64,000 nt of DNA from Myxococcota bacterium (GCA_036229005.1 JAZAMN010000039.1:1-64000); one strand, 5' to 3'; shown: positions 14,159 to 57,880, counted from the stretch's first letter. A program made the numbers and translations. Notes: a model not told the origin generated them from the letters alone.

Positions 14159-15594
14159 GGCTACGCACGCGCATCCTGGCGGTGTCCGCCACGGTCGCCA
14201 TCCCCATGCTCCTGGGGCTTGTCGTCTGGGACAGCCACTCCCGCCGGGATGCCGCCGCTGCAGCGCTGGCCTCCATGCTGGAGCGCACCACCTCCGAGCA
14301 GGGCGCGCAGGCCCGCTGCGAAGCCGATCCAGAGGGCTGGGGCGTGGGTGGTCCGCGTGAGCCGGGGCCGCCTCCCAGTCAGGGACCTGCTGCGGTCGCT
14401 CCGATGGGTGGTCCCCCCTCTGGCCCAGGGGGAGAGCCTCCGGAGGGCTTTTCGGGGAGGCCCTGGCGTGGTCCACCAATAGGGCTCAACCTCGACGGCA
14501 TCGAGGCCCCTCAGATCGTCGTGGTGCCTCTGGACGCCAGCGAGGACACGCTCCCGCCGGATCTGGTGGTCGGCCTCCCGCAGCTCGAGCGCAGCCCCTT
14601 CTGGGAGAACGACCTGCGCGTCTGGATGGCGACGGGGTGGGTGGGTCCCTGCGCGGTCGTCCGCATCGAGGGCAACACCGTCCCCGGCTTCATGGGCAGC
14701 GTGCTCCCGGCCAGCCCCGTGTGGTTGCTGCCGCCCCTGGTCCTGCTGGCCGTGCTCTGGTTCGCGGTGGGGCCGCCCGTGCGCCGCATTCAGCAGCTCA
14801 CGGACTCGGTGCGTGAGGGCGAAGACCCCATCCCGGTGCAGGGCGACGACGAGCTCGGTGAGCTCGCCCGGGCCTTTGAGACCAGCGCCCGCCAGCTCCG
14901 CGAGCAGGTGGCCCGGACCGAGAACCGGGAGCAGGCCCTGCGGGACTTCGTGGCCAACACCGCGCACGACGTCCGCATCCCCCTGACCGTGCTGATCGGG
15001 CACCTCAGCGAGCTCGAGCAGCGCGGAGACGCCGAGCTGGTGGGCCGCGCGCCGGGGGAGGCCCACTACCTGGGTGCGCTCCTGTCCAACCTGGCCTCGC
15101 ATACGCGCCTGGAGGGCCCAGCGCCCTTCACGGAGGTGGATCTCGAGGGGGTGATCCAGCGGGTGGTGTTGCGCCACCAGCCCCTCGCTCGCCGACGGGA
15201 CATTCAGATCCACTGGGGTGGCAGCGCGGAGGATGCGCAGGTGCAGGGAGAGCTCACGCTCATCGAGCAGGCCCTGTCCAACCTCGTCTACAACGCGGTG
15301 CGCTACAACCACAGCGGCGGCCACGTGGCCGTGACCGTAGACGAGGACGACGGCGGCGGCTGGCTGCTCTCGGTGGAAGATGACGGCCCGGGCGTGCCCC
15401 CCGAGAACCTGGCGCGGCTCACGGAGCGGGGCTTCCGGGGCAAGCAGGGGCTGCGGCGGGAGGGCGAGGGCTCCCAGGGGCTGGGCCTGAGCATCGTCGC
15501 GCGCGTGGCCGAGCTGCACGGCTGGAGCCTGGAGCTGGGCGCGGGCAGCGAAGGCGGTCTGCGGGCTGTCATGCGCATCCCGGCGCAGGCCTGA
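14155..15594 (+). CDS. HAMP-domain sensor histidine kinase
   Basis: TTGA overlap, two TM segments, HAMP DELGELA, AHDVRIPL H-box, NLVYNA, DDGPG, GLGL. Confidence 0.9.
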   Translation: MRLRTRILAVSATVAIPMLLGLVVWDSHSRRDAAAAALASMLERTTSEQGAQARCEADPEGWGVGGPREPGPPPSQGPAAVAPMGGPPSGPGGEPPEGFSGRPWRGPPIGLNLDGIEAPQIVVVPLDASEDTLPPDLVVGLPQLERSPFWENDLRVWMATGWVGPCAVVRIEGNTVPGFMGSVLPASPVWLLPPLVLLAVLWFAVGPPVRRIQQLTDSVREGEDPIPVQGDDELGELARAFETSARQLREQVARTENREQALRDFVANTAHDVRIPLTVLIGHLSELEQRGDAELVGRAPGEAHYLGALLSNLASHTRLEGPAPFTEVDLEGVIQRVVLRHQPLARRRDIQIHWGGSAEDAQVQGELTLIEQALSNLVYNAVRYNHSGGHVAVTVDEDDGGGWLLSVEDDGPGVPPENLARLTERGFRGKQGLRREGEGSQGLGLSIVARVAELHGWSLELGAGSEGGLRAVMRIPAQA

Positions 15595-30706: not shown

Positions 30707-30730
30707 GGATTTAAGAATATTCTCAAATCC
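30707..30730. promoter_or_regulatory. 24-bp AT-rich near-perfect palindrome, candidate activator (UAS) or operator site
   Basis: GGATTTAAGAATATTCTCAAATCC has one mismatched pair and lies in the divergent intergenic region. Confidence 0.65.
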
Positions 30731-45613: not shown

Positions 45614-46534
45614 ATGATCGAGGTTGTCGGGATCACCAAGCGCTACGGTCCCTTCGTCGCCGTCAAGGACCTGAGCTTCTCGGTGGAAAAGGGGCGGGTG
45701 CTGGGGTTCATCGGGCCCAATGGCGCGGGAAAGAGCAGCACGATGCGGGTGCTGACCGGGTTCTTGCCAGCGACTGAAGGGACCGCCAAGGTGGCGGGCT
45801 TCGACGTGTTCGAGCAGCCCATGGAGGTCAAGCGCCGGGTCGGCTACCTGCCCGAGACCCCGCCGCTCTACAAGGAGCTCTCGGTGGGGGACTACCTGCG
45901 CTTCGTGGCCGAGCTGCGCGGCATCTACGGGGCCGACGCCCTGCGCCGCATCGGCGAGGTGATGGAGCGCGTGGGCCTGCGGGGCTGGGAGCGCCGCATC
46001 CTGGGCAGCCTGTCCAAGGGCTACAAGCAGCGGGTGGGGCTGGCGCAGGCGCTGATCCACGACCCGCCCGTGCTGATCCTGGACGAGCCCACCTCGGGCC
46101 TGGATCCGGCGCAGGTGGTGGGCGTGCGCAAGCTCATCGCGGAGCTGCGCGGCGACCACACCATCGTGCTGTCCACCCACATCCTGCGGGAGGTCGAGGC
46201 CCTCTGCGACGACGTGGTGGTCATCAACAAGGGGGAGCTGGCCGCCAAGGGCACCCTGGCCCAGGTCCGCGAGGCCCACGCGCCGGTGCGCTATCGGGTG
46301 GGGCTGTCCTGCCCGGATCTGGACGCGGCGGCCCGCCTGGTGGGCGAGCTCCCAGAGGTCGGCAGCGTGCGCCCGGTGGATGGCGTGCTGGAGATCTCGG
46401 CGCCCGCGGACCCGCGGGAGGCCGTGGCCAAGGCGGTGACCGCGCAGGGCTGGGGCCTGAGCGCCCTGGAGCGGGTCGCCCCCACCCTGGAGTCCGCCTT
46501 CCTGTCCCTGGTCGGCGCCGAAGGAGAGCTGTGA
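45614..46534 (+). CDS. ABC transporter ATP-binding protein (GldA-like)
   Basis: GPNGAGKS, LSKGYKQR, LDEPTSGLD, STH. Confidence 0.95.
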   Translation: MIEVVGITKRYGPFVAVKDLSFSVEKGRVLGFIGPNGAGKSSTMRVLTGFLPATEGTAKVAGFDVFEQPMEVKRRVGYLPETPPLYKELSVGDYLRFVAELRGIYGADALRRIGEVMERVGLRGWERRILGSLSKGYKQRVGLAQALIHDPPVLILDEPTSGLDPAQVVGVRKLIAELRGDHTIVLSTHILREVEALCDDVVVINKGELAAKGTLAQVREAHAPVRYRVGLSCPDLDAAARLVGELPEVGSVRPVDGVLEISAPADPREAVAKAVTAQGWGLSALERVAPTLESAFLSLVGAEGEL

Positions 46535-47244
46535 TGCGGGCGGTGTGGACGCTCCTCAAGAAGGAGCTCAAGGTCACCTTCGTGACCCCCCTGGCCTACG
46601 TGTTCCTGGGGGTCTTCCTCTTTCTCGCGGGGCTCTTCTTCTACCTGGGCATCGTGATGACCGGCGAGGCGAGCCTGCGGGTGATGATCGGAAACCTGGC
46701 GATCGCCCTGCTCTTTGTGCTGCCCATGCTGACCATGCGGCACTTTGCCGAGGAGTCGCGCTCGGGGACCTTCGAGCTGCTGATGACCTCGCCGCTCTCC
46801 CCGGTGGCCCTCATCCTGGGCAAGTGGCTCTCGTCCCTGGTGTTGACAACGATGATGCTGGCCGGGACCCTCATCTTCCCCCTCGTCCTGGAGTTCTACG
46901 GCGACCCCGACTGGGGCGTCGTGTTCACCTCGTACATCGGGCTGTGGCTGACCTGCGCGGCCTTCACGGCGGCGGGGCTCTTCGCGTCGTCGCTGAGCAA
47001 TGATCAGGTCGCGGCGGGCATGGGCGGAATCGTGCTGCTGCTGCCCTTCTGGCTGATCGGGAACGCGGACACGCTGGTCGGCTCCGGGGCCCAGGAGTGG
47101 CTGGACAAGCTGGCGCTCCTGCCCCACCTGCGGGGCTTCACGCGCGGGGTGGTGGATACGGCAGACGTGGCGTACTTCGTGGCCTTCGCGTTCGTGTTCC
47201 TCTTCCTCACCTACCGCACCCTGGAGAGCCGGCGATGGCGCTGA
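46531..47244 (+). CDS. ABC-2 permease (GldF-like)
   Basis: KEL..FVTPLAYV, TMRHFAEE..SGTFELL, 6 TM. Confidence 0.92.
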   Translation: MMRAVWTLLKKELKVTFVTPLAYVFLGVFLFLAGLFFYLGIVMTGEASLRVMIGNLAIALLFVLPMLTMRHFAEESRSGTFELLMTSPLSPVALILGKWLSSLVLTTMMLAGTLIFPLVLEFYGDPDWGVVFTSYIGLWLTCAAFTAAGLFASSLSNDQVAAGMGGIVLLLPFWLIGNADTLVGSGAQEWLDKLALLPHLRGFTRGVVDTADVAYFVAFAFVFLFLTYRTLESRRWR

Positions 47245-48704
47245 GCCGACAGACACAGCGGGCCCTGGCCTACGGCGGAAACGCCACGCTGGTGACCGTC
47301 CTGGTCGTGATCCTGGTGGGCGTGCTCTACGGCGTGGCCGACCGGCACCGCGTGAGCTGGGACCTCTCTGAGGGCCACGAGAACACCCTCCAGGTCGACA
47401 CCCTCAAGAAGCTGGAGCTCCTCCAGGAGGACAACCAGCTCGTCAGCGTGACCGCGTTCTCCCACCAGCAGGGCAAGCGCGACACCTACATCAAGGACCG
47501 CGAGGTCAAGGACCTGTTGGTCGAGCTGGACCGGGCGTCTTCTGTGGTGGAGACGGAGTTCGTGGACTTCGACCGCGAGCGGCTCACCGCCGAGAAGCTG
47601 GGCGTCACCGAATATGGCCACATCGTGGTCCAGCGAGGAGAGGAGCGGGTCGACATCCGCGCGCGGGAGCTCTTCCGGGCCGGGGGCCCGGACAAGGAGG
47701 CCGAGTTCCTGGGGGAGGCGGTGTTCAACCGGGCGGCGGCGCAGCTCCTCTCGGACCGCGAGCGCGTGATCTACACCCTGCGCGGGCACGGCGAGAAGGA
47801 CCTGCGGGAGAAGGGCTCGGATGGGCTCAGCGATCTGGCGCTGCTCCTGGAGAAGGAGAACTACCGCCTGGCCCCGCTGGACTTCAACTCGGGTCGGGAG
47901 GCCGGCGGCATCCCCATCGTGCCCCTGGACGCGTCGGCGGTGCTGGTGGCCGGTCCGCAGAACCCCCTGACGGACGCCGAGCAGGACGCTCTGAGCGGCT
48001 ACCTGGCGGGCGGCGGCGCGATGATGATCGCGGTGGACCCCCGCGCGCCGGACCTGCGGGTGCTGGAGCAGCTCGACGTGCGGGTGCCCTCGGGCATCGC
48101 CGCGGACAAGCGGGTCTACTACCCCCACCCGGACCGCCCGGTGCCCCAGTACGGGCGCCACAGCACGGTGGACGAGCTGCAGGAGGACCGGCTGGCCACG
48201 GTGCTCAGCCACATCGCCCCCCTGCGGGTGCCCGCGCAGCCCCCCGAGTGGATGACCCTGAGCACTCTGTTCAAGTCCTCGCGGGACGGCTGGATCGACC
48301 GCGGCGGCGAGCTGGAGGTCGGCGGCCTGGCCCGCTTCGAGCCGGAGATCGACCTCCCGGGCCCCGTGACCTACGCGGTCGCGATGGAGCTCAAGGCCAC
48401 CGAGGCCAGCGTGGTGAGCCCCGGGGAGCGCACGGCCCGCGTGATGGTGCTGGGCGACTCCGACTGGATGGCCAACGAGCTGCTCGCCACGGGCCCTGGC
48501 AACGGCAGCTTTGCGGTGAACGCCTTCCGCTGGCTGGTCTGGGACGACGCCCGGCTCTCGCTGGTGGGCAACGCCACGGCGGTCCGGCGCCTGGCCCTGA
48601 CGGAGGAGGACCAGGGGCGCATCCGCTTCTTCGTGGTGTTCCTGCTCCCCATCCTGATCCTGATCGCCGGCGGGGCCGTCTGGGCCAGCCGTAGAGGACG
48701 CTGA
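47235..48704 (+). CDS. GldG-family ABC auxiliary component
   Basis: WDLSE..NTL, GHGE, LVAGP, GDSDW; N- and C-terminal TM. Confidence 0.88.
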   Translation: MALSRQTQRALAYGGNATLVTVLVVILVGVLYGVADRHRVSWDLSEGHENTLQVDTLKKLELLQEDNQLVSVTAFSHQQGKRDTYIKDREVKDLLVELDRASSVVETEFVDFDRERLTAEKLGVTEYGHIVVQRGEERVDIRARELFRAGGPDKEAEFLGEAVFNRAAAQLLSDRERVIYTLRGHGEKDLREKGSDGLSDLALLLEKENYRLAPLDFNSGREAGGIPIVPLDASAVLVAGPQNPLTDAEQDALSGYLAGGGAMMIAVDPRAPDLRVLEQLDVRVPSGIAADKRVYYPHPDRPVPQYGRHSTVDELQEDRLATVLSHIAPLRVPAQPPEWMTLSTLFKSSRDGWIDRGGELEVGGLARFEPEIDLPGPVTYAVAMELKATEASVVSPGERTARVMVLGDSDWMANELLATGPGNGSFAVNAFRWLVWDDARLSLVGNATAVRRLALTEEDQGRIRFFVVFLLPILILIAGGAVWASRRGR

Positions 48705-50180
48705 ATGGACATCAAGAGCTTCCGCGGAACCCTGCTGCTGGCCCTGCTGGTTGGCGGCGTGGTCATCGGCGTCAAGGCCCTAGACCCCGCCGAAGAGGAG
48801 GTCGAGCAGACGGCGGAGCGCCCCCTGTTCGTCTTCGAGAAGCAGGACCTGGTCAAGTTCTCGGTGGAGCGGCCGGACGGCGTCGACCTGACGCTGGAGG
48901 AGCGCGCCGAGGGCTGGTTCATCGTAGAGACGGGCAAGCCGGCGGCCAAGACCCAGGTCAACCGCACGCGGCACCAGCTCCACGATCTGGTCGCCCGAGC
49001 CAGCGTGGTGGACAACCCCGAGCAGCCCTCGCTCTACGGGCTGGGGCCGGAGCAGGCGGTGCGCGTCACCCTGTACTTCCGGGACGGGAGCAGCGAGTCG
49101 TTCCTCGCCGGCGACCCCAACCCGACGGGGGTGTCGTACTACATGCAGCGAGAGGGTGAGGAGACCATCTTCACCGTGAAGAAGTCCGCTGTCGACTACT
49201 TCTCCCTGGACCTGGAGGACTTCCGCGAGCGGCGCTTCGCCAGCTTCAACGCCAAGGACGCCGACCGCATCGAGGCCGACCTGCCCCAGGGACGGCGCCT
49301 CGTGCTCCAGCGCACCAGCGAGAAGAGCTGGGAGATGGTGGAGCCGGTCGCGGGCATGTCGGTGTCCCTGGACCGCGCGCGCTCGCTGCTGGGCCGCATC
49401 TCGGTGCTCAAGGAGACCGGCGACTTCGGGGTGGAGCTGCCCGACGGCGACCCCAAGCTGGCGGAGTACGGCCTGTTGGAGCCCCGGGCCCGCATCCGCG
49501 TGTCCTTTGGCACCCGGGCCCCCCTGACCCTGCTTGTGGGCGACGAGGTCCCCACGGACGACACCCAGCCCCACGCCTGGGTGCGGGTGGAGGGCCAGCA
49601 GACCGTGTTCGAGTCGCGGGTGGGCTTCCTGGACGACTACCTGGTGGACCCCCAGGAGCTGCGCAACCCCCGCTTTGTGGGGCTGGATCCCGACGAGATC
49701 GAGAGCTGGCTCGTGGAGCTCAACGAGGACGAGGACCCCGGCCTGGTCGGGGTGACTCCGGGCAAACGCGTCGGCGACACCTGGCAGTGGGAGGACGGCC
49801 GCCCGGTCTCCGGCAGCACCCCCAAGCGCGTGGCCGACCGCATGGCGACCCTGGACGCCGAGGCCTTCGAGGACGGGGTCCAGAACCTGCGGCCCTACGG
49901 TCTGGACACCCCGGTGGCGCGGGTCACGCTGCACGACCTGAATGGAGAGGTGGTCGTGGTGCTCTTGGGCGATGAGGGTGAACCGCGCCGGGATGTGGAG
50001 GACCGCGTCATCCCGAGGATCTGGGCCACCGTCGAGGGCAGCGACGGCGTGTATCTTGTGGATGGCTCCGCCCTGGACGTGCTCCAGGACGCCCGCCGCG
50101 AGCACAACAAGAAGCTCAAGAAGGACGCTGAGAAGGCGGAGCGTCAAGAGAAGATCCCTCTGGAGGCCACCCCCGAATGA
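48705..50180 (+). CDS. DUF4340 domain protein
   Basis: N-terminal TM and three repeats containing YGL..P. Confidence 0.8.
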   Translation: MDIKSFRGTLLLALLVGGVVIGVKALDPAEEEVEQTAERPLFVFEKQDLVKFSVERPDGVDLTLEERAEGWFIVETGKPAAKTQVNRTRHQLHDLVARASVVDNPEQPSLYGLGPEQAVRVTLYFRDGSSESFLAGDPNPTGVSYYMQREGEETIFTVKKSAVDYFSLDLEDFRERRFASFNAKDADRIEADLPQGRRLVLQRTSEKSWEMVEPVAGMSVSLDRARSLLGRISVLKETGDFGVELPDGDPKLAEYGLLEPRARIRVSFGTRAPLTLLVGDEVPTDDTQPHAWVRVEGQQTVFESRVGFLDDYLVDPQELRNPRFVGLDPDEIESWLVELNEDEDPGLVGVTPGKRVGDTWQWEDGRPVSGSTPKRVADRMATLDAEAFEDGVQNLRPYGLDTPVARVTLHDLNGEVVVVLLGDEGEPRRDVEDRVIPRIWATVEGSDGVYLVDGSALDVLQDARREHNKKLKKDAEKAERQEKIPLEATPE

Positions 50181-51652
50181 CTGCCCTGTTGCTGGCGCTC
50201 GCCTGCACCACGCGCACTGGAGACGCCGGCGCGATCGCCATCGCCTACCAGCACCACGTGGACGGCGACATCGAGCCCTGCGGCTGACCCAAGAATCCTC
50301 TGGGCGGTCTGTCCAGGCGAGCAGTGGTGTTGAGCAAGCTCCGCATGGAGTCCCCCACGGTGGTGGTGGACGGCGGCAGCCTGTTCTGGAAGTCCAAGGT
50401 GCTGCGGGAGTCGGAGCGCGCGCAGCGCCTGCTCAAGGCGGAGCTGCAGGCCAAGGTGGTGGCCCGGAACGGGATCGACGCGATGGTGCCCGGCGTCGGG
50501 GATCTGGCCCTGGGGCTGGACGAGTACGCCCGCTTGACCGCCGAGCTGCCGGTGCTGTCGGCCAACCTGGTCTGCGGGGAGCGGAGCTGGCCCGGCTCGG
50601 TGGTGGTGGATCGCGGGGGCGTGAAGCTGGGAGTGATCGGGGTCAGTGGCGAGCTCCATCCGGACTGCACCCTCAGCCAGCCGCCCCTGGACGCGCTCCA
50701 AGCGGAGCTCCAGGGCATCGGCGAGGTCGACGCGGTGCTGGTCCTGGCCCACGTGGGGCGGGGCTTTGGAAACCAGGCCGCGCAGGTCGCCGGGGTGGAC
50801 TTCGTTCTGGACGGGGCCGACGGTGCGAGCCGCAAGCACCCGCTGCAGGAGGGGAGCGCCTGGATCCTGGGCAACGGCAAGCGGGGCAAGACCCTGGGCG
50901 TGCTCAAGCTGGAGCCCGTGGAGGGCGCCGAGCTGTGGATGGACCGGGGGGCCTCCGAGGGGGTGGAAGAACGCCTCGCGCAGCGGCAGGAGCGCCTGGA
51001 GGAGGCGCAGGAGGGGCTCAGCAGTGCCTCGCCGGCGGACCGAGCCAAATACCAGTCGCGGGTGGACTACTACTCCAAAGAGGTGGAGGAGGCAGAAGCC
51101 GAGCTAAAGGCGGCCGCCAGCGCCGCCGGCCCCCGCTCCCTCTTCTCCAACGAGCTGGTCCCGCTGAACGCCGACGTGGGCGAAGACACCGCCATCCTGG
51201 CCGAGCTCGAGGCCCTGACCGAGGCCATCGCCGCGCTGCCGCCCCAGGTCGCCTCGGCGCCGACCAGCATGGGCCCCTACGTGGGCTCGGAGAGCTGCCG
51301 GGGCTGCCACCTGGAGGCGTGGACCCAGTGGGCCGAGACGCCCCACGCGCGGGCCTACGCGAGCCTGGCCCGGGAGAACAAGGAGCTGGACGCGAGCTGC
51401 TATGGCTGCCACGTGACCGGCGCCTTCCACCCCGAGGGCCCGCAGACCCCGCACGAGGTGGGGCACCTCAAGAACGTGGGCTGCGAGTCCTGCCATGGTC
51501 CCGGCCGGGCGCACGTGGCGGACCCCAAGGCCGGGCAGATGCAGGGGGAGCCCCGGGTCCAGAGCTGCACGCAGTGTCACGACGGCGTGCAGGACCAGGG
51601 CGACTTCGACCAGTCCAGCTACTGGCCGCGGGTGGTCCACACCCCCCAATAG
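50177..51652 (+). CDS. Predicted selenoprotein lipoprotein: UshA-like (CxU) domain, coiled coil and tetraheme cytochrome c
   Basis: ATGA overlap. MTALLLALAC...GDIEPCG-TGA(50285-50287)-PKNPLGGLSRR is in frame with ORF 50324..51652. Hemes CRGCH, CYGCH, CESCH, CTQCH. Confidence 0.85.
50288..50317 (+). promoter_or_regulatory. Bacterial SECIS element
   Basis: Stem CTGGGC/GTCCAG with loop GGTCT. The loop GGT starts after an 18-nt spacer from the UGA, as in the E. coli fdhF SECIS (GCAGGUCUGC). Confidence 0.75.
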
Positions 51653-51665
51653 CGGGCGCGGCGGC

Positions 51666-52331
51666 TCAGTCCAGGCCGTCGTCCGCGTAGAGGGTGAGGA
51701 AGGCCTCGGAGCTGTCCGACACCCCGTCGTTCACCACCAGGCCGATGGTGACGTCGCCCGCTGCATTGCAGGTCAGCTCCGGCGAGGACAGGCTGGGCTC
51801 GTCGATGTCCGCGTCACCGACGACCACCCGCCAGGTGTAGCTGAGGAGGTCGCCGTCCGCGTCGGTGGAGGACTCCGTGAGGGCGAGGGGGTCGCCGACC
51901 CAGCAGTCGCCCGGGTCGTCGATGACGGCCACTGGGGCGCTGTTGCCGGTGGTCACGCCGCCGCCCACGGTCTTGAAGCTGGTGCTGATCTGAGCGGGCA
52001 GGCGGCCGTAGCCGCGACCCTCCAGGGTGTCCGCGAGGGTGAAGCTGTAGATGGTGTTCTCTTCCAGCTCGGCGTCCGGGACGAGGCTCAGCGTGCGGGT
52101 CTGGTCGTCGTAGGACAGGGCGCTGGGGACGGGGTTGCCGCTGGGGTCGTCCAGGAACACGGCGCCCACCCAGCTATCGGTGACCAGGTCGTCGTTGAAG
52201 GTGGCGTGCAGAGCGGTGTCCGGCTCCACAAGGGCGGCGCCGTTGGAGGGCGCGACGTGGATGACGGTGAGGTAGTCGGCCACGACCACCGGGTCGCCGC
52301 AGCCCAGGAGCAGGCTCAGGATGGGGAGCAT
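51666..52331 (-). CDS. Ig-like (Big_5/SbsA) plus PKD domain lipoprotein
   Basis: LLLGC lipobox; APSNGA..V..TF..D; NSAPVA..S.DADGD.LSYTW. Confidence 0.8.
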   Translation of the reverse strand: MLPILSLLLGCGDPVVVADYLTVIHVAPSNGAALVEPDTALHATFNDDLVTDSWVGAVFLDDPSGNPVPSALSYDDQTRTLSLVPDAELEENTIYSFTLADTLEGRGYGRLPAQISTSFKTVGGGVTTGNSAPVAVIDDPGDCWVGDPLALTESSTDADGDLLSYTWRVVVGDADIDEPSLSSPELTCNAAGDVTIGLVVNDGVSDSSEAFLTLYADDGLD

Positions 52332-52339
52332 GGGGGACC

Positions 52340-53794
52340 TCAGAATGCGATGCGGTATGCGATGTTGATGCGGCTGCCGCTCAGGCGCTCCCGGGCTTCT
52401 TCGCCGTCGGGGTCCACGTTGCCGAAGCTGCGGCTGCCCAGGTTCATGGCCAGCTCAGGGGAGAGCACGCCAGGGCCGGCGTCGAAGTCCAGGCCCAGGG
52501 CCCAGCTCGTGCCGACGCTGACACCTCGGAGCTTCTCGTCGTCCTGGAGGCGGGTGCTGGAGTAGCCGGCCAGGGCGGCCCAGCCGTAGAAGTCGGCGAA
52601 GCCACCGTCGATGGTGTAGCGGGCGCCGAGCTCGAGGGGCCGGACGCGGGTGGTCCAGTCCACGGTCTGGGTGGTGGCGCTGCCGCCGATGGGGGGCTGG
52701 ATGGCCAGCTCCTGCTCCAGGCCGACGCCGTAGCGGCCGAAGCGGGCGCCCAGGTGCACGTTGGGGACGTCCACCTTGTAGAGCAGGTCCACGCCCAGGT
52801 ACCAGCTCGCCTGGTTGCCGGCGCGGGTGCTGCCCAGGCCGGTGCGCAGGCCCAGCCACAGAGGGGGCTCGTCGGTGCTGGTGCTGCCCTTGCTGTTGCT
52901 GGGGGGCGGCCCCAGGGTCTCGGGGGCGGTGGTCTCGGGGGCGGTAGTCTCGGCGGCCTGTTCGGGCTCTTCTGGGGCCTGCTCGGGCTCCTCGGGGGCC
53001 TTCGCCACTGCGGGCTCCTCGGTCGCACCGGGCTCCTCGGTCACACCGGGCTCCTCGGTCACAGCGGGGCGGCGCTCGCTGGTGCCGACGGAGACCTCGG
53101 GGGCCTCCTCGGGGGTTCCGGCGGTCTCGGCCACTGCCTCGGCGGGAGCCTCGGTAGGAGCCTCGGCGGGAGCCTCGGCGGGCTCAGGAGTGGGCGCTTC
53201 GGTCGTGCCAGGGCGGCGCTCGCTTGTGCCGACGGAGACCTCGGGTTCCTCGGCGGGTGCCTCGGCGGCGGCCTCAGTCGGAGGCTCTGGGGGAGCTTCC
53301 GCGACCGCTGGGCTCACCAGCGCGCTGGCTGGGGCGTCGATCCGCGCGAGCATGGGGAGGCTGTCCCGGGTGGGCTCCAGGCTGAACACGTGCTGCCCAG
53401 GGGGCACGTTGATGGTGGCGGTGCTGACCACGCTGGGATGGCCGCCTTGCCCGTCCATCAGGCTGCCCGCGCCGGACTTGCCGTCCGCCTTGATGGTCAG
53501 GATGTTCACCCCGTCGCCCTTGGCGCGGACCTGGCCGGTGGGGCCGTCGGTGTCTTCGGGGAGGCGCTGGATGATGTCCACCGTCAGGGTCGCCGGGCCC
53601 ATCACGTCGAAGGTGAGGGCGCCACCCTGGGGGATGGCGTACCAGGGGCCGCCCTCCGGACCGCCCCGGAGCAGGGCGGGCTGGCTGTTGTTGTTGGGGG
53701 GCAGCGGGTCGGCTGCCGCCGGGGTGGACAGCAGGGCCAGGCCAATCAGGGTCAGTCCCGTCGCCCAGCGGGCCGGGGTCAGAAGCGAGCGCAT
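52340..53794 (-). CDS. Secreted protein with a Pro/Glu/Ala/Thr-rich stalk and a C-terminal outer-membrane beta-barrel
   Basis: Signal peptide, low-complexity linker, amphipathic strands ending YRIAF. Confidence 0.7.
   Translation of the reverse strand: MRSLLTPARWATGLTLIGLALLSTPAAADPLPPNNNSQPALLRGGPEGGPWYAIPQGGALTFDVMGPATLTVDIIQRLPEDTDGPTGQVRAKGDGVNILTIKADGKSGAGSLMDGQGGHPSVVSTATINVPPGQHVFSLEPTRDSLPMLARIDAPASALVSPAVAEAPPEPPTEAAAEAPAEEPEVSVGTSERRPGTTEAPTPEPAEAPAEAPTEAPAEAVAETAGTPEEAPEVSVGTSERRPAVTEEPGVTEEPGATEEPAVAKAPEEPEQAPEEPEQAAETTAPETTAPETLGPPPSNSKGSTSTDEPPLWLGLRTGLGSTRAGNQASWYLGVDLLYKVDVPNVHLGARFGRYGVGLEQELAIQPPIGGSATTQTVDWTTRVRPLELGARYTIDGGFADFYGWAALAGYSSTRLQDDEKLRGVSVGTSWALGLDFDAGPGVLSPELAMNLGSRSFGNVDPDGEEARERLSGSRINIAYRIAF
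52915..53300 (-). repeat. Mixed in-frame tandem repeats (12, 15 and 18 bp) and a duplicated PEVSVGTSERRP block
   Basis: EAPA, TTAPE and TEEPG units; gccgacggagacctcggg near 53084 and 53228. Confidence 0.7.
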
Positions 53795-53800
53795 TCGGTG

Positions 53801-56800
53801 CTACTCCACGCCGAAGATTTCGATCTCGTTCACGCCACCGCCGACGCTGTAGTAGCTGTCGACGTAGAAGCGGACGTACTGGGCGGTGACGGGGCTGCTG
53901 AGGTCGATCTGGTGGTAGCGCAGGTCGGTCTCCAGGTCTCCGGTGCCGCTGTCGATGAGCTGCTCCTCACCGTTGAACTCGCCGGTGTGGGAGGCGTAGA
54001 TCTCATAGTCCTTGGCGGCGTAGCTGTAGCGGGGGCCGTGGTGGGTGTTGACCCAGCGGATCCGGCCGATCCCGGTGATGTCCGCCAGCTCGACCTCGAC
54101 CCAGCCCACCGAGCCGGTGCGGGCCAGCCAGTAGGTCTCGTCGGCGTAGGCGTCCTCGCTGGTGTCCTCGTCGATGACGTTGGCCGCCGTGTAGTTGGCC
54201 GAGAGGTTGGAGCTGGCGCTGGCGCTGCCGTCGGGGGCCAGGTTGTCGCTGATGGTGCAGACCTCGCCCTCGGTGTAGAGGGCCTTGAGCTCGGTGCCGG
54301 TGAAGTTGGACTCCACGAAGCGCAGGTTGTCGAGCTGCCCCTCGAAGAAGTAGCTCGTGCCCAGCGCGGAGCCGATGTAGAGGTCGGAGCTGTTGGTGTT
54401 CAGGTCCGAGCCCACGGTCACGATGTCCTCCAGGACGCCGTCCACGTAGAGCCGCAGCTTGGTGCCCGTGTAGTTGCAGACCACGTGGTGCATCGTGCCG
54501 TCGTTGTAGCCGCTGGCGCTGGCGGTCCAGTCTGTCCCCGAGGTGTCGCGGACCAGGCAGTACAGGTCGCTGCCGTCCAGGGCCGCCGCGTAGTTGTACA
54601 CGCCCTTGTGGAAGAGCACCTCGATATCGGAGGTCGCGCCGTCCCGGCTGTACCAGAAGTCGGCGGTGAACGCGGAGGAGAAGCTCAGGGTGCTGTCGTG
54701 GGTGATGCTGGCGTAGCTGCTGCCGTCGAACACGGCTGCGTTGCCCATCTCACCGATGATGCGGTCGGTGCCGGACTCGGTCGCGTCCAGCCCGTTGGGG
54801 CTGTAGTCGGTGGCCGTGGCGCCGGTGTCCTCGTCGAAGGCCAGGAAGAGGCTGTAGTCGTCGTAGCAATCGTCGCTGTAGGCCACGCTGATGCTCTCGA
54901 CGTTGGTGCCGACGTTCCCGACGATGTCCTCGGAGTCGACCTCGATGCTGTTGCTCCCGTCCGAGAGCGCGACGTAGGCGACCCAGGTGTCGAAGTTCCC
55001 GGAGGTGCTCACCGCGGTGGCCCCACCCACGGTCAGCGAGGAGATCTCGCTGTCGTCGGAGGCCGTGCCCTCGATGGCGATGATGCCGTCGGAGGCGGTG
55101 GTGCCGGTCGCCGGCGAGGTGATGGTCGCGGTCGGCGCGTCGGTGTCCTCGTCGCCGCTACAGAACTGCTCGGTGTCGTTGTAGCGGTCGCTGATCTCGG
55201 AGGCGGTGAGGGCGGAGTCGTGGATGATGAACTCATCCATCCTCCCGTTGAAGGCGTAGAAGCCAGGGGAGGGGCTGTAGTCGCCGATGACGAGGTCTCC
55301 CGTGCTGGTCCCGATGGCGCCGGAGCCTCCTCCAGAGCTCCCGATCGCCACGCCGTCCTCGTAGATCTCACCGTTGAAGCTGCTGTCGTAGGTGATGGCG
55401 TAGTGGTGCCACTCACCATCGATGGTGGGCGTCGCGTAGAGGTAGACGTAGGCGCCAGTTCCGGTCAGGCCGTAGAAGGTGAGGGTAGCCCCCGCCAGGT
55501 AGGAGGCGTAGTTGTAGCCCCTCCCGCTGTTCTCCTTCATGAAGATGGTCTGGGTGCCGCGGAGGTTGCTGTCGGGCTTCATCCACCACTCGATGGTGAA
55601 GTCCGAGGTGAGCTGCAGCTCGCTGCTGTCGGGGACGGTGACGCTCTCGCTGCCGTCGAAGTCCATGCCGCCAAAGACCCGCGCGCCCAGCCAGTCGCCG
55701 TTGGTCGCGGTGCCGTCGTTGCCGTCCCACGTGCTGTCCGAGACGGTGGTCCCGCTGGTCTCGTCCATGTGGAGCACGAGCACGGCGCCGCTGTCTCCAA
55801 CCTCGATGTCGACGCGGTCGGTGTCGAAGTCGGTGCCGTCGTCGGCGTAGACGCGCAGGGAGTAGGTGCCCTCTGCGTCCGGGGTGAAGCTGGGCGTGGC
55901 GGTCTTGCGGTCGGTGATGTCGCCGTTGACCAGGGCCGAGCCGGAGGGGACGGAGATGAACACCCACTTGTAGGTCAGGGTGTCGCCGTCGTCGTCGGTG
56001 CTGCCCGAGGCGTCCAGGCTGACCAGCCCGGTCCCGCAGATCTCCTGGTCGTCACCCGCGTCGGCCACGGGCACGGTGTTGGTGGAGCCGCCGGTGACGG
56101 TCACCTCCATCGTGTCGATGTCCTTCTCGTAGGGGTCGTCCACGCGCAGGCGCACGGTGTAGGTGCCCGCGACGTCCGGGGTGAAGGTGGTGCTGACGGC
56201 GGTCCGGTCACCGAAGTCCGCGCCGGCGATCGACGAGCCGCTGGGGACGCTGGTGAAGCCCCAGTAGTAGGTGATGGGGTCGCCGTCCGGGTCGCTGGAG
56301 CCGCTGCCGTCCACCGTGACGGTGTCGCCCAGGGTGACGCTCTGGTCGGCGCCGGCGTCCGAGATCGGGGCGGTGTTGGCGCCGCCGCTCACGCTGATGC
56401 TCATGCTGTCGGTGTCGCAGGCGGCGGAGGTGTCGCAGACCTCGAGGCTGAGGCTGTAGGTGCCGCCCACGTCTGGCGTGATGGAGGGGGTGGCGGTGTC
56501 CGCGCCGGAGAGGTCCGCGGTGGTGAGGGCGGAGCTGGTCGGCGCGCTGTCCAGGGTCCAGGCGTAGGTGAGGGCGTCGCCGTCGGGGTCGGAGGATGCG
56601 CTGCCGTCGGCGCTGAGGGTGTCTCCCAGGGTGCCGCTGACGTCGGAGCCGGCGTTGGCCACGGGCGGGTTGTTGCCGGCGGCGCCCTCGACCTCCCAGG
56701 TCACGGTGTCGGTGTCGCAGAGGGGCTCGCTGTCGCACACGGCGAGCTGGATGAGCCAGGTGCCGGCCACGTCGGGCTCGAAGCTGGCCTCCAGGGTGTC

Positions 56801-57880
56801 AGCGCCGTCGATGTCCGCTGCGCTCAGGGTGGAGCCGCTGGGCTGGCTCACGAACTGCCAGGTCGCCTCCAGGGTCTCTCCCTCGGGGTCGTAGGAGGCC
56901 CGGCCGTCCAGGGTGATGGCCTCGCCCAGTCCGGCGACGCCGTCGCTGCCGCCGTCTGCGACGGGGGCCTGGTTCTCGCCCATACCGGAGCGCACGTCCA
57001 CCTGGCAGCGGCTCTCCAGGGCGCCGTCGCTCACGGTGAGCTCCGCTCGGAAGACGCCGACCACGTCTGTGGTGAAGGTGGGAGAGGATTCTGTCTCGTC
57101 GCTGAGGCTGGCGGCGCTGCCGGCCGGGGGCGCGAGCTCCCAGGAGTAGGTCAGGGGGGCGCCCTCAGGGTCGGAGGAGGCGGAGCCGTCCACCTGGACC
57201 AGAGTGCCGACCTCGACGGATTGGCTGGGGCCGCAGTCGGCGACAGGGGGCTGGTTGGCCTCTTCCGTGATGACCAGGGTCAGGTCGTCCCGGATGCTGC
57301 GGGTGCGGCCGTCATCCACCTCGAGGCCCAGCACGTAGGTGCCGGGGGTGTCGGCCACGAACTCCGCGGAGGCGTTCTGCACGCTCTCGTGCTCCAGGCT
57401 GGGGGAAGCGCCGCTGGGGGCCACCTGCACGGAGAAGATGTAGCTCAGCGCGTCCCCGTCAGGGTCGAAGGAGGCGCTGCCGTCCAGGACGATCGGGACG
57501 CCGACGGCGATGGTGCTGCTCGTGCTGAGCACCGCCTCGGGGGCGGCGTTCGCGCCCTGCGCGGTGACGGTGACGATGTCGGGCGCGGAGACGTTGCCCT
57601 CGTCGTCGGTCACGGTCAGCGAGATGGTGTAGGACCCAGCCAGGTCAGGGGTGAAGGTCCCAGTGGCGGAGTCCCCAGGAGCCTCTGCCTCCGAACCATC
57701 GGGCGCTCCGACCACGCTCCAGGAGTAGGTGGTGACGAATCCGTCGGCGTCGTAGGACCCCGAGCCGTCCAGGCTGGCGCTGCCCCCGAGCGCGACGAGC
57801 TGGTCAAAACCAGCGTCGGCGGTGGGGTTGAAGCTCGCCTGATCCTTGCAGGCCGCCAGAAGGAAGAGGAGGTTGATCAT
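53801..57880 (-). CDS. Large surface lipoprotein: about 7 PKD/REJ-like repeats, two LamG domains, an Ig domain and a C-terminal F5/8 (discoidin) domain
   Basis: LLAAC lipobox; repeated N..PVADAG...LDGS.S.D.DG..LTY.W; WHHYAITYD and HHVVCNY LamG motifs; AQYVRF..EIEIFG. Confidence 0.88.
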   Translation of the reverse strand: MINLLFLLAACKDQASFNPTADAGFDQLVALGGSASLDGSGSYDADGFVTTYSWSVVGAPDGSEAEAPGDSATGTFTPDLAGSYTISLTVTDDEGNVSAPDIVTVTAQGANAAPEAVLSTSSTIAVGVPIVLDGSASFDPDGDALSYIFSVQVAPSGASPSLEHESVQNASAEFVADTPGTYVLGLEVDDGRTRSIRDDLTLVITEEANQPPVADCGPSQSVEVGTLVQVDGSASSDPEGAPLTYSWELAPPAGSAASLSDETESSPTFTTDVVGVFRAELTVSDGALESRCQVDVRSGMGENQAPVADGGSDGVAGLGEAITLDGRASYDPEGETLEATWQFVSQPSGSTLSAADIDGADTLEASFEPDVAGTWLIQLAVCDSEPLCDTDTVTWEVEGAAGNNPPVANAGSDVSGTLGDTLSADGSASSDPDGDALTYAWTLDSAPTSSALTTADLSGADTATPSITPDVGGTYSLSLEVCDTSAACDTDSMSISVSGGANTAPISDAGADQSVTLGDTVTVDGSGSSDPDGDPITYYWGFTSVPSGSSIAGADFGDRTAVSTTFTPDVAGTYTVRLRVDDPYEKDIDTMEVTVTGGSTNTVPVADAGDDQEICGTGLVSLDASGSTDDDGDTLTYKWVFISVPSGSALVNGDITDRKTATPSFTPDAEGTYSLRVYADDGTDFDTDRVDIEVGDSGAVLVLHMDETSGTTVSDSTWDGNDGTATNGDWLGARVFGGMDFDGSESVTVPDSSELQLTSDFTIEWWMKPDSNLRGTQTIFMKENSGRGYNYASYLAGATLTFYGLTGTGAYVYLYATPTIDGEWHHYAITYDSSFNGEIYEDGVAIGSSGGGSGAIGTSTGDLVIGDYSPSPGFYAFNGRMDEFIIHDSALTASEISDRYNDTEQFCSGDEDTDAPTATITSPATGTTASDGIIAIEGTASDDSEISSLTVGGATAVSTSGNFDTWVAYVALSDGSNSIEVDSEDIVGNVGTNVESISVAYSDDCYDDYSLFLAFDEDTGATATDYSPNGLDATESGTDRIIGEMGNAAVFDGSSYASITHDSTLSFSSAFTADFWYSRDGATSDIEVLFHKGVYNYAAALDGSDLYCLVRDTSGTDWTASASGYNDGTMHHVVCNYTGTKLRLYVDGVLEDIVTVGSDLNTNSSDLYIGSALGTSYFFEGQLDNLRFVESNFTGTELKALYTEGEVCTISDNLAPDGSASASSNLSANYTAANVIDEDTSEDAYADETYWLARTGSVGWVEVELADITGIGRIRWVNTHHGPRYSYAAKDYEIYASHTGEFNGEEQLIDSGTGDLETDLRYHQIDLSSPVTAQYVRFYVDSYYSVGGGVNEIEIFGVE

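Follow-up and report, generated by a model that had tools for sequence, protein, structure and literature searches.

A very likely selenocysteine-containing member of the UshA-like PCGU family joins a degenerate nucleotidase fold to a tetraheme cytochrome in a Myxococcota bacterium

The gene at 50177..51652 (+) in a 64,000-nucleotide stretch of DNA from a Myxococcota bacterium (GCA_036229005.1 JAZAMN010000039.1:1-64000; the whole stretch is called the window) raises two questions: whether its in-frame TGA at codon 37 is read as selenocysteine (Sec), and what a protein that joins a UshA-type domain, a Cys-x-Sec (CxU) motif and a tetraheme cytochrome would do. The TGA very likely encodes Sec, and the product is almost certainly a Sec-containing member of the family NF041198. 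As to function, we propose by analogy, at a rough probability of 0.45, a sulfur-sulfur oxidoreductase in which, as predicted, Cys35 would cover heme 2 on its open face and Sec37 would attack the sulfur of an S-S or S-H group. The gene has the following features.

50177..51652 (+): UshA-like (seleno)protein gene of the NF041198 family, 491 aa by read-through of one TGA
50162..50166 (+): Shine-Dalgarno-like GGAGG, 10 nt upstream of the ATG, seen in the sequence and putative in function
50177..50206 (+): predicted short lipoprotein signal peptide, ending at the lipobox Cys10
50279..50287 (+): Cys35-Gly36-Sec37 (CxU) motif, with TGA or TGC/TGT in homologues
50299..50317 (+): predicted bacterial selenocysteine insertion sequence (SECIS) hairpin, loop GGTCT at 50306-50310, from folding and codon conservation
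50228..51244 (+): 5'-nucleotidase/UshA-type metallophosphoesterase fold, residues ~18-356 of the AlphaFold model, ending in a linker helix at residues 338-352
50951..51121 (+): helical hairpin/coiled-coil insertion, residues 259-315 of the AlphaFold model
51266..51643 (+): cytochrome c554-like tetraheme domain, with CxxCH at residues 374, 408, 436 and 464

Translated with TGA as U, the frame ran from the ATG at 50177 to a TAG at 51650-51652, and the single in-frame TGA was codon 37 (50285-50287), in the context EPCG-U-PKNPLGG. The ATG shares bases with the stop codon of DUF4340, the gene just upstream (ATGA, 50177-50180). The GC content at third codon positions was 0.92 in the 36 codons 5' of the TGA, compared with 0.93 in the remainder of the gene. 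The default open reading frame (ORF) starts at a GTG at 50324, the protein database carries a 442-aa truncated form, and most close database homologues are cut just past the TGA, so that they appear without the signal peptide and the active motif. A previous reading of the window from sequence only had described an exported lipoprotein whose N-terminus gene callers miss; this description holds, together with the ATG, lipobox, TGA codon, hairpin, four CxxCH motifs and degenerate metal motifs that it listed, and the annotation fix is real, as a selenoprotein is hidden from standard annotation. A lipobox-like Cys was present in 71/79 homologous loci under a permissive pattern, and the gene, judged on sequence, probably encodes one exported, lipid-anchored selenoprotein of the UshA-like PCGU family. 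Very short signal peptides that have no charged N-region (M-x5-8-LAC), as in this gene, were seen in many exported proteins of the source genome.

The TGA was found at the same site in 32/32 fetched loci, which were the 30 best matches and two added ones. With the window and two duplicates set aside, the count was 29/29 other genomes; additional TGAs reported in some rows were those genes' own stops. A wider set, in which 79 of 80 loci were parsed, contained 52 TGA and 27 Cys forms, and Cys occupied both CxU positions, with U counted as C, in 95/95 full-length rows of the alignment. The P-C-G-U/C motif near the N-terminus is present here as EPCGU (residues 33-37). The source genome contains selA (389 bits), selB (340 bits), selD (280 bits) and selC, a tRNA-Sec with anticodon UCA; the search for these four genes had been put forward in the sequence-only reading as a check on recoding, as had the residue at the TGA position of homologues, which proved to be TGA or Cys, and conservation upstream of the TGA, where coding-like sequence was found. 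Matches to the selenoprotein at E<=1e-10 occurred in 150/154 genomes of the order, a count that includes paralogues and partial matches. Among the matches listed (150/331), selA was present in all 47 genomes with a TGA-type match. Two taxonomic families, f18 (selA 0/26) and f24 (selA 0/18), keep the gene in 26/26 and 18/18 genomes, and their matches contained no stop among those listed.

On an alternative view, translation truly stops at the TGA, or the codon is a pseudogene lesion or a sequencing error, and the protein starts at 50324. This would fit database forms truncated in the same way and a hairpin that, taken alone, is not unusual. However, the TGA is conserved across a whole class and aligned with Cys, it is confined to selA-positive genomes among the matches listed, and the sequence 5' of it is coding-like. 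Contigs of three other runs (X2, X3 and X4) were identical to the window at 50285-50287 and in the hairpin though differing elsewhere (X2 and X3 at 25 and 24 of 1,899 bases), which speaks against the sequencing error raised earlier as a worry; these runs and the likely source run are labelled as marine or seawater metagenomes. We consider a true stop extremely improbable, and the proposal of Sec recoding is supported by the conserved TGA/Cys site together with the Sec machinery.

In the hairpin, 50299/50300-50305 pair with 50311-50316/50317 to give 7 bp and a 5-nt loop, GGUCU, 18 nt past the UGA (-10.3 kcal/mol). RNA folding gave the stem and the GGT loop as they had been described from the sequence, and the element fits the bacterial SECIS (bSECIS) model in the part of PMC13188914 cited here. 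The stability of the hairpin was dropped as evidence, being neither above shuffled sequences (folding z-scores of -1.1 to +0.36) nor rare: a loose bSECIS-like pattern follows 14,998/125,213 TGA triplets of the genome (12%), and the exact 18-nt GGT form follows 79. Its significance comes from codon conservation and not from fold energy. The loop codons were GGC-GGT in 52/52 TGA genes, which are kin and do not amount to 52 independent events, and GGT stood there in 3/25 Cys genes; outside the loop, GGT made up 287 of the 2,310 Gly codons of the TGA genes. Two Cys forms that sit inside the Sec clade (L081 and L094) had both lost the GGT loop codon.

The NCBIfam model NF041198 (UshA_like_PCGU) matched residues 5-474 over model positions 9-514 of 519 (E 1.9e-77). 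Because the match spans nearly the whole model, the curated family includes the heme domain, and the novelty that had been implied for the two-domain protein is withdrawn: the selenoprotein is a new member of an already catalogued family. It scored 261 bits (U as C) and 253 in a six-frame search, compared to a curated cut-off of 275. In 301 genomes of the phylum, 22 passed this cut-off and 217 matched at E<=1e-30, so that most clear homologues fall below it; orthologues within the taxonomic family of the source genome do reach it. A FastTree tree of 156 N-domains (SH-like support, from the Shimodaira-Hasegawa test, no bootstrap) placed the window protein in an 11-row set (support 95) with the over-cut-off L057 and L067, and the enclosing 64-row set (support 99) held 13/14 over-cut-off rows. 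This tree leaves out L145, L187, L209, L241 and L254 (motif not parsed), L252, L253, L256, L262 and L265, and loci with no N-domain match. Named homologues and Atlas clusters indicate Myxococcota for the close forms, and Planctomycetota, Acidobacteriota, Thermodesulfobacteriota and Nitrospinota for the distant ones.

An ocean survey (Zhang and Gladyshev 2008, PMC2398784) had counted 76 selenoprotein sequences under "COG0737, UshA-like, CxU", and the same UshA-like CxU family appears in a table of a 2026 review (PMC13188914); the portions of these two papers used here give motif and counts, with no mention of function or of the heme domain. None of the papers found stated a function for an NF041198-family gene, and none joined three of the terms c554, nucleotidase, selenocysteine and tetraheme. 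The gene is matched in 217/301 sampled genomes of the phylum and in many other phyla, yet comes without a function in the papers found. Two variants of the family were seen along the way. Relatives of the same order carry a second, Cys-form tetraheme paralogue beside a TPR gene and a 900-aa gene (L160-L164), a type not found in the source genome with the queries used, and the member at L221:6103-8718 has ~480 extra C-terminal residues, which by eye open with a thioredoxin-like "SLCPYG".

The AlphaFold model of the whole chain had a mean predicted local distance difference test score (pLDDT) of 93.9 and a predicted template modelling score (pTM) of 0.90. Compared with CD73, the N-terminal domain gave a VIA Z of 31.3 and a root-mean-square deviation (rmsd) of 2.2 A over 264 residues. 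UshA/CD73 and SoxB share this fold and the linker helix (Z 29-31, rmsd 2.2-2.6 A, ~260 residues), but they have the dimetal ligands, a catalytic His and a nucleotide-binding C-terminal domain. Here the C-terminal substrate-binding domain is absent and a PF13435 c554-like domain takes its place. The metal motifs read HVD, GS, GVGD, H and GADG, as against DxH, GD, GNHE, H and GHxH; when set beside those of the Thermus thermophilus 5'-nucleotidase (NDxH, DAGD, GNHE, LSH and GGHSH), only His192 remains, and that column is His in 28/95 full-length rows. Across the same 95 rows the metal-motif columns vary, and Cys35 and position 37 are invariant. Judged by these residues, the dimetal site of the UshA-type fold is lost, in agreement with the sequence-only view of a UshA-type fold with a degenerate metal site that is not a nucleotidase. 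A separate, canonical 5'-nucleotidase with intact metal motifs is encoded elsewhere in the genome (L017, G000:C52:362270-363058) and served as an in-genome control. The insertion at residues 259-315 is missing in some Sec- and heme-bearing orthologues (e.g. L254).

The tetraheme domain was confirmed by four CxxCH motifs, invariant across the aligned rows. Distal His residues were fewer: H390 and H446 were present in 146/146 rows and H488 in 139/146, with no fourth conserved His. Since there are three distal His for four hemes, and by homology with c554 and OcwA, heme 2 (C408/C411/H412) is predicted to have no His ligand and is likely open on its distal face; the pairing of the other His with their hemes is likewise inferred from this homology. 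The closest structure to the domain was c554 of Nitrosomonas europaea (1BVB; VIA Z 10.3, rmsd 3.0 A, 124 residues), and the second CxxCH aligned with heme 2 of c554 and OcwA, the open active-site heme of both proteins in the part of 10.1101/641308 cited here. c554 and hemes 1-4 of OcwA (6I5B) have the same fold, the same heme order and a heme 2 with no distal His. They differ in that the domain here is fused to a CxU domain and stands outside any hydroxylamine oxidoreductase context, and ~55 residues of c554 3-183 have no counterpart among the 124 aligned. Two further multiheme frames were noted, a 703-aa open frame near 30715 (+) of the window with five CxxCH and a lipobox-like start, and an octaheme open frame at G000:C20:225082 (-) with two repeats, each matching the c554-like end of NF041198.

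An open heme together with an invariant Cys/Sec pair suggests an arrangement like that of MccSep, in which, as described in the section of PMC13510729 cited here, Cys is the distal ligand of heme 2 and a Sec beside it attacks and reduces polysulfide. MccSep/ExtKL of Geobacter sulfurreducens (PDB 9WT8, NF040886) is likewise an exported multiheme c-type protein with one Sec, and its His/Cys heme 2 with adjacent Sec is the chemistry that we propose by analogy for the window protein. According to the same source it differs in having five hemes, a C-terminal Ig-like Sec domain, a spacing of 86 residues between its Cys and its Sec, and a soluble tetrameric form, and in occurring in anaerobes. The window protein, with four hemes and an N-terminal Sec, is not a member of that family (20-24 bits with NF040886, compared to a cut-off of 250).

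In the proposed mechanism, SelB would read the hairpin and insert Sec at codon 37, and the protein would then undergo export, receive its lipid at Cys10 and take up four c-type hemes. The C-terminal domain of nucleotidases closes over the active-site face, and the cytochrome holds the same position in the chain. By analogy, the cytochrome would close over the former active-site face, where the CGU loop, following motif I, would lie; the whole-chain pTM of 0.90 suggests a fixed packing of the two domains in the model. Sec37 would then enter a mixed Se-S bond, its partner being a protein dithiol/disulfide or a per- or polysulfide, Cys35 at heme 2 would resolve this bond, and hemes 1, 3 and 4 would carry the electrons. 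The oxidative direction, with electrons drained to the respiratory cytochrome c pool, appears more likely, because the organism is an aerobe with two heme-copper oxidases and the operon holds no quinol-dehydrogenase partner; the two heme-copper oxidases and two NrfD-type genes of the source genome do not lie beside the selenoprotein gene. Cys35 was present in 142/142 heme-bearing loci and was replaced by Thr or Ser in 2/17 heme-less rows that keep Sec (four loci were skipped in this count, and one heme-less row ran into the end of its contig), which hints, if only slightly, that Cys35 may serve the heme. A mutual-information search for contacts between the N-domain and the heme domain returned only invariant columns and was set aside as an artefact.

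The protein may represent a second case, assembled independently, of an enzyme that combines Sec with a Cys-ligated heme, with a CGU loop on a dead nucleotidase scaffold closing onto an open c554 heme. It would then serve as an S-S oxidoreductase in the periplasm of aerobic Myxococcota and be widespread, occurring in many other phyla too; we advance this wider view, built on analogy, more tentatively than the chemistry itself. If true, envelope thiol chemistry would be coupled directly to c-type electron transfer. As natural Cys forms exist, the heme-ligand count and the MccSep structure offer a sharp functional test without selenium. The earlier suggestion of a Cys/Sec couple wired to a heme chain keeps its status as an inference: it gains from the open heme 2 and loses from the Sec kept in heme-less orthologues.

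Several observations weigh against the sulfur-sulfur oxidoreductase with a Cys-capped heme. The placement of the cytochrome over the CGU loop rests on fold analogy, and the likeness to MccSep is a weak heme-motif match (E ~1e-5) in another fold. Among the phylum neighbours examined there was no redox partner gene; thiol-redox neighbours elsewhere made up 7/53 loci, partly kin, and VKOR is present in the source genome, so that no extra disulfide generator is required. In 18 hand-picked loci, pair covariation in the hairpin was weak (72% paired, with 10/500 shuffles as high), and its two pairs with double changes were reached in 235/500 shuffles; two distant TGA homologues (L239 and L241) have no GGT codon. 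The one RNA run covered yielded a single 40-base piece of <90% identity, which says nothing either way, and RNA or protein support was not found. Most directly, 14 heme-less loci keep the TGA and the GGT loop, and 12/14 keep Cys35; they include 9 of the 10 fetched genomes of family f4, and within the Sec clade the heme domain disappeared on two or more occasions. The source genome also encodes a heme-less CGC paralogue (L020:1399-2394, G000:C52), a 331-aa lipoprotein with E-T-C-G-C that matches the N-domain of NF041198 only. Given these heme-less Sec loci and the CGC paralogue, the CxU domain can do useful work with no heme chain fused to it.

These loci are the mainstay of the strongest competing view, in which the CxU site acts on its own in thiol-disulfide or peroxide/sulfenic-acid repair of envelope proteins, with DsbA/DsbD-type recycling, and the heme domain is an optional electron store or docking element that does not touch Cys35. 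Heme-less CGC paralogues (L259 and L260 as well as L020) fit it too, as do the neighbours that resemble DsbA, thioredoxin and MsrA in other phyla. Yet most relatives, across many phyla, carry the heme domain as a fusion, always with the fourth distal His missing, and in two of the f4 heme-less genes an early TAA or TAG may reflect decay or assembly error; we regard this view as rather unlikely, though the least so of the alternatives. Catalysis at the open heme 2 itself, on small oxyanions or N-oxides (nitric oxide, hydroxylamine, nitrite, selenite or peroxide) as in c554 and OcwA, with the CxU site gating or feeding electrons, would leave the survival of Sec after heme loss unexplained, and neither a distal His-His pocket nor any further conserved polar residue was seen in the heme domain; it seems improbable to us. 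Slightly less credible still is metal binding or hydrolysis (Zn, Cu or SoxB-like thiosulfonate chemistry) at a remodelled site, with Cys35 and Sec37 standing in for the His/Asp ligands that were lost. The fold is indeed that of 5'-nucleotidases and SoxB, conservation extends to D109 (91/95) and G67, and 65/95 rows have Asp or Asn at position 68; but the window protein has Ser at position 68, the other ligand positions vary freely, and exchange of Sec and Cys is typical of redox sites, which counts against a metal or hydrolytic one. A SoxB-like role was rejected as SoxY was not found with PF13501 in the source genome (94% complete).

As regards the heme-less forms, the Sec- and SECIS-bearing orthologues in which a low-complexity tail stands where the cytochrome would be were L095, L246-L253 (f4), L257, L157-L159 and L258. 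L095 reads PTGU and L258 PSGU, and the premature TAA or TAG lies in L252 and L253. In a search for candidate cytochromes that might act in trans on the heme-less forms, four of five genomes had c554-like matches elsewhere in the genome. A role in replacing DsbB was also considered: DsbB was not found in the source genome, but VKOR is present.

The gene is flanked as follows.

45614..50180 (+): GldA/GldF/GldG-like ABC (ATP-binding cassette) transporter genes and the DUF4340 gene, upstream and probably co-transcribed
51666-52331 (-): Ig-domain lipoprotein, convergent downstream cluster
52340-53794 (-): Pro/Glu-rich protein with no Pfam match, same cluster
53801-57880 (-): large PKD/laminin-G surface protein, same cluster

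The Gld-like ABC/DUF4340 genes lay upstream in ~30/41 order-level loci, and they were not found there in other classes or in the sister order. As the synteny is confined to one taxonomic order, we rejected the idea of a dedicated partnership. The downstream cluster was syntenic only within the family. Across the phylum the neighbours, called with our own script, were housekeeping or envelope genes (tsaD, ksgA, PP2C, M23, secA, Pal/TPR, rimM-like) that change between orders and classes. In 53 metagenomic loci from distant phyla (one or two members scanned per cluster), the next gene was DsbA-like in three, thioredoxin-like in two and MsrA in two, and DUF1573 lay upstream in six and DUF4159 in three.

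A genome-wide scan for selenoprotein patterns gave 191 matches, mostly spurious. From among the matches listed, G000:C16 (-) near 73480 and G000:C59 (-) near 15418 are likely selenoprotein genes, thioredoxin/TlpA-like with W-U-P-x-C (UxxC), and both have a GGT-loop hairpin 17-18 nt past the TGA. The SelD match, at G000:C35:34191-35090, lies inside a 770-aa open frame, which suggests a fused SelD.

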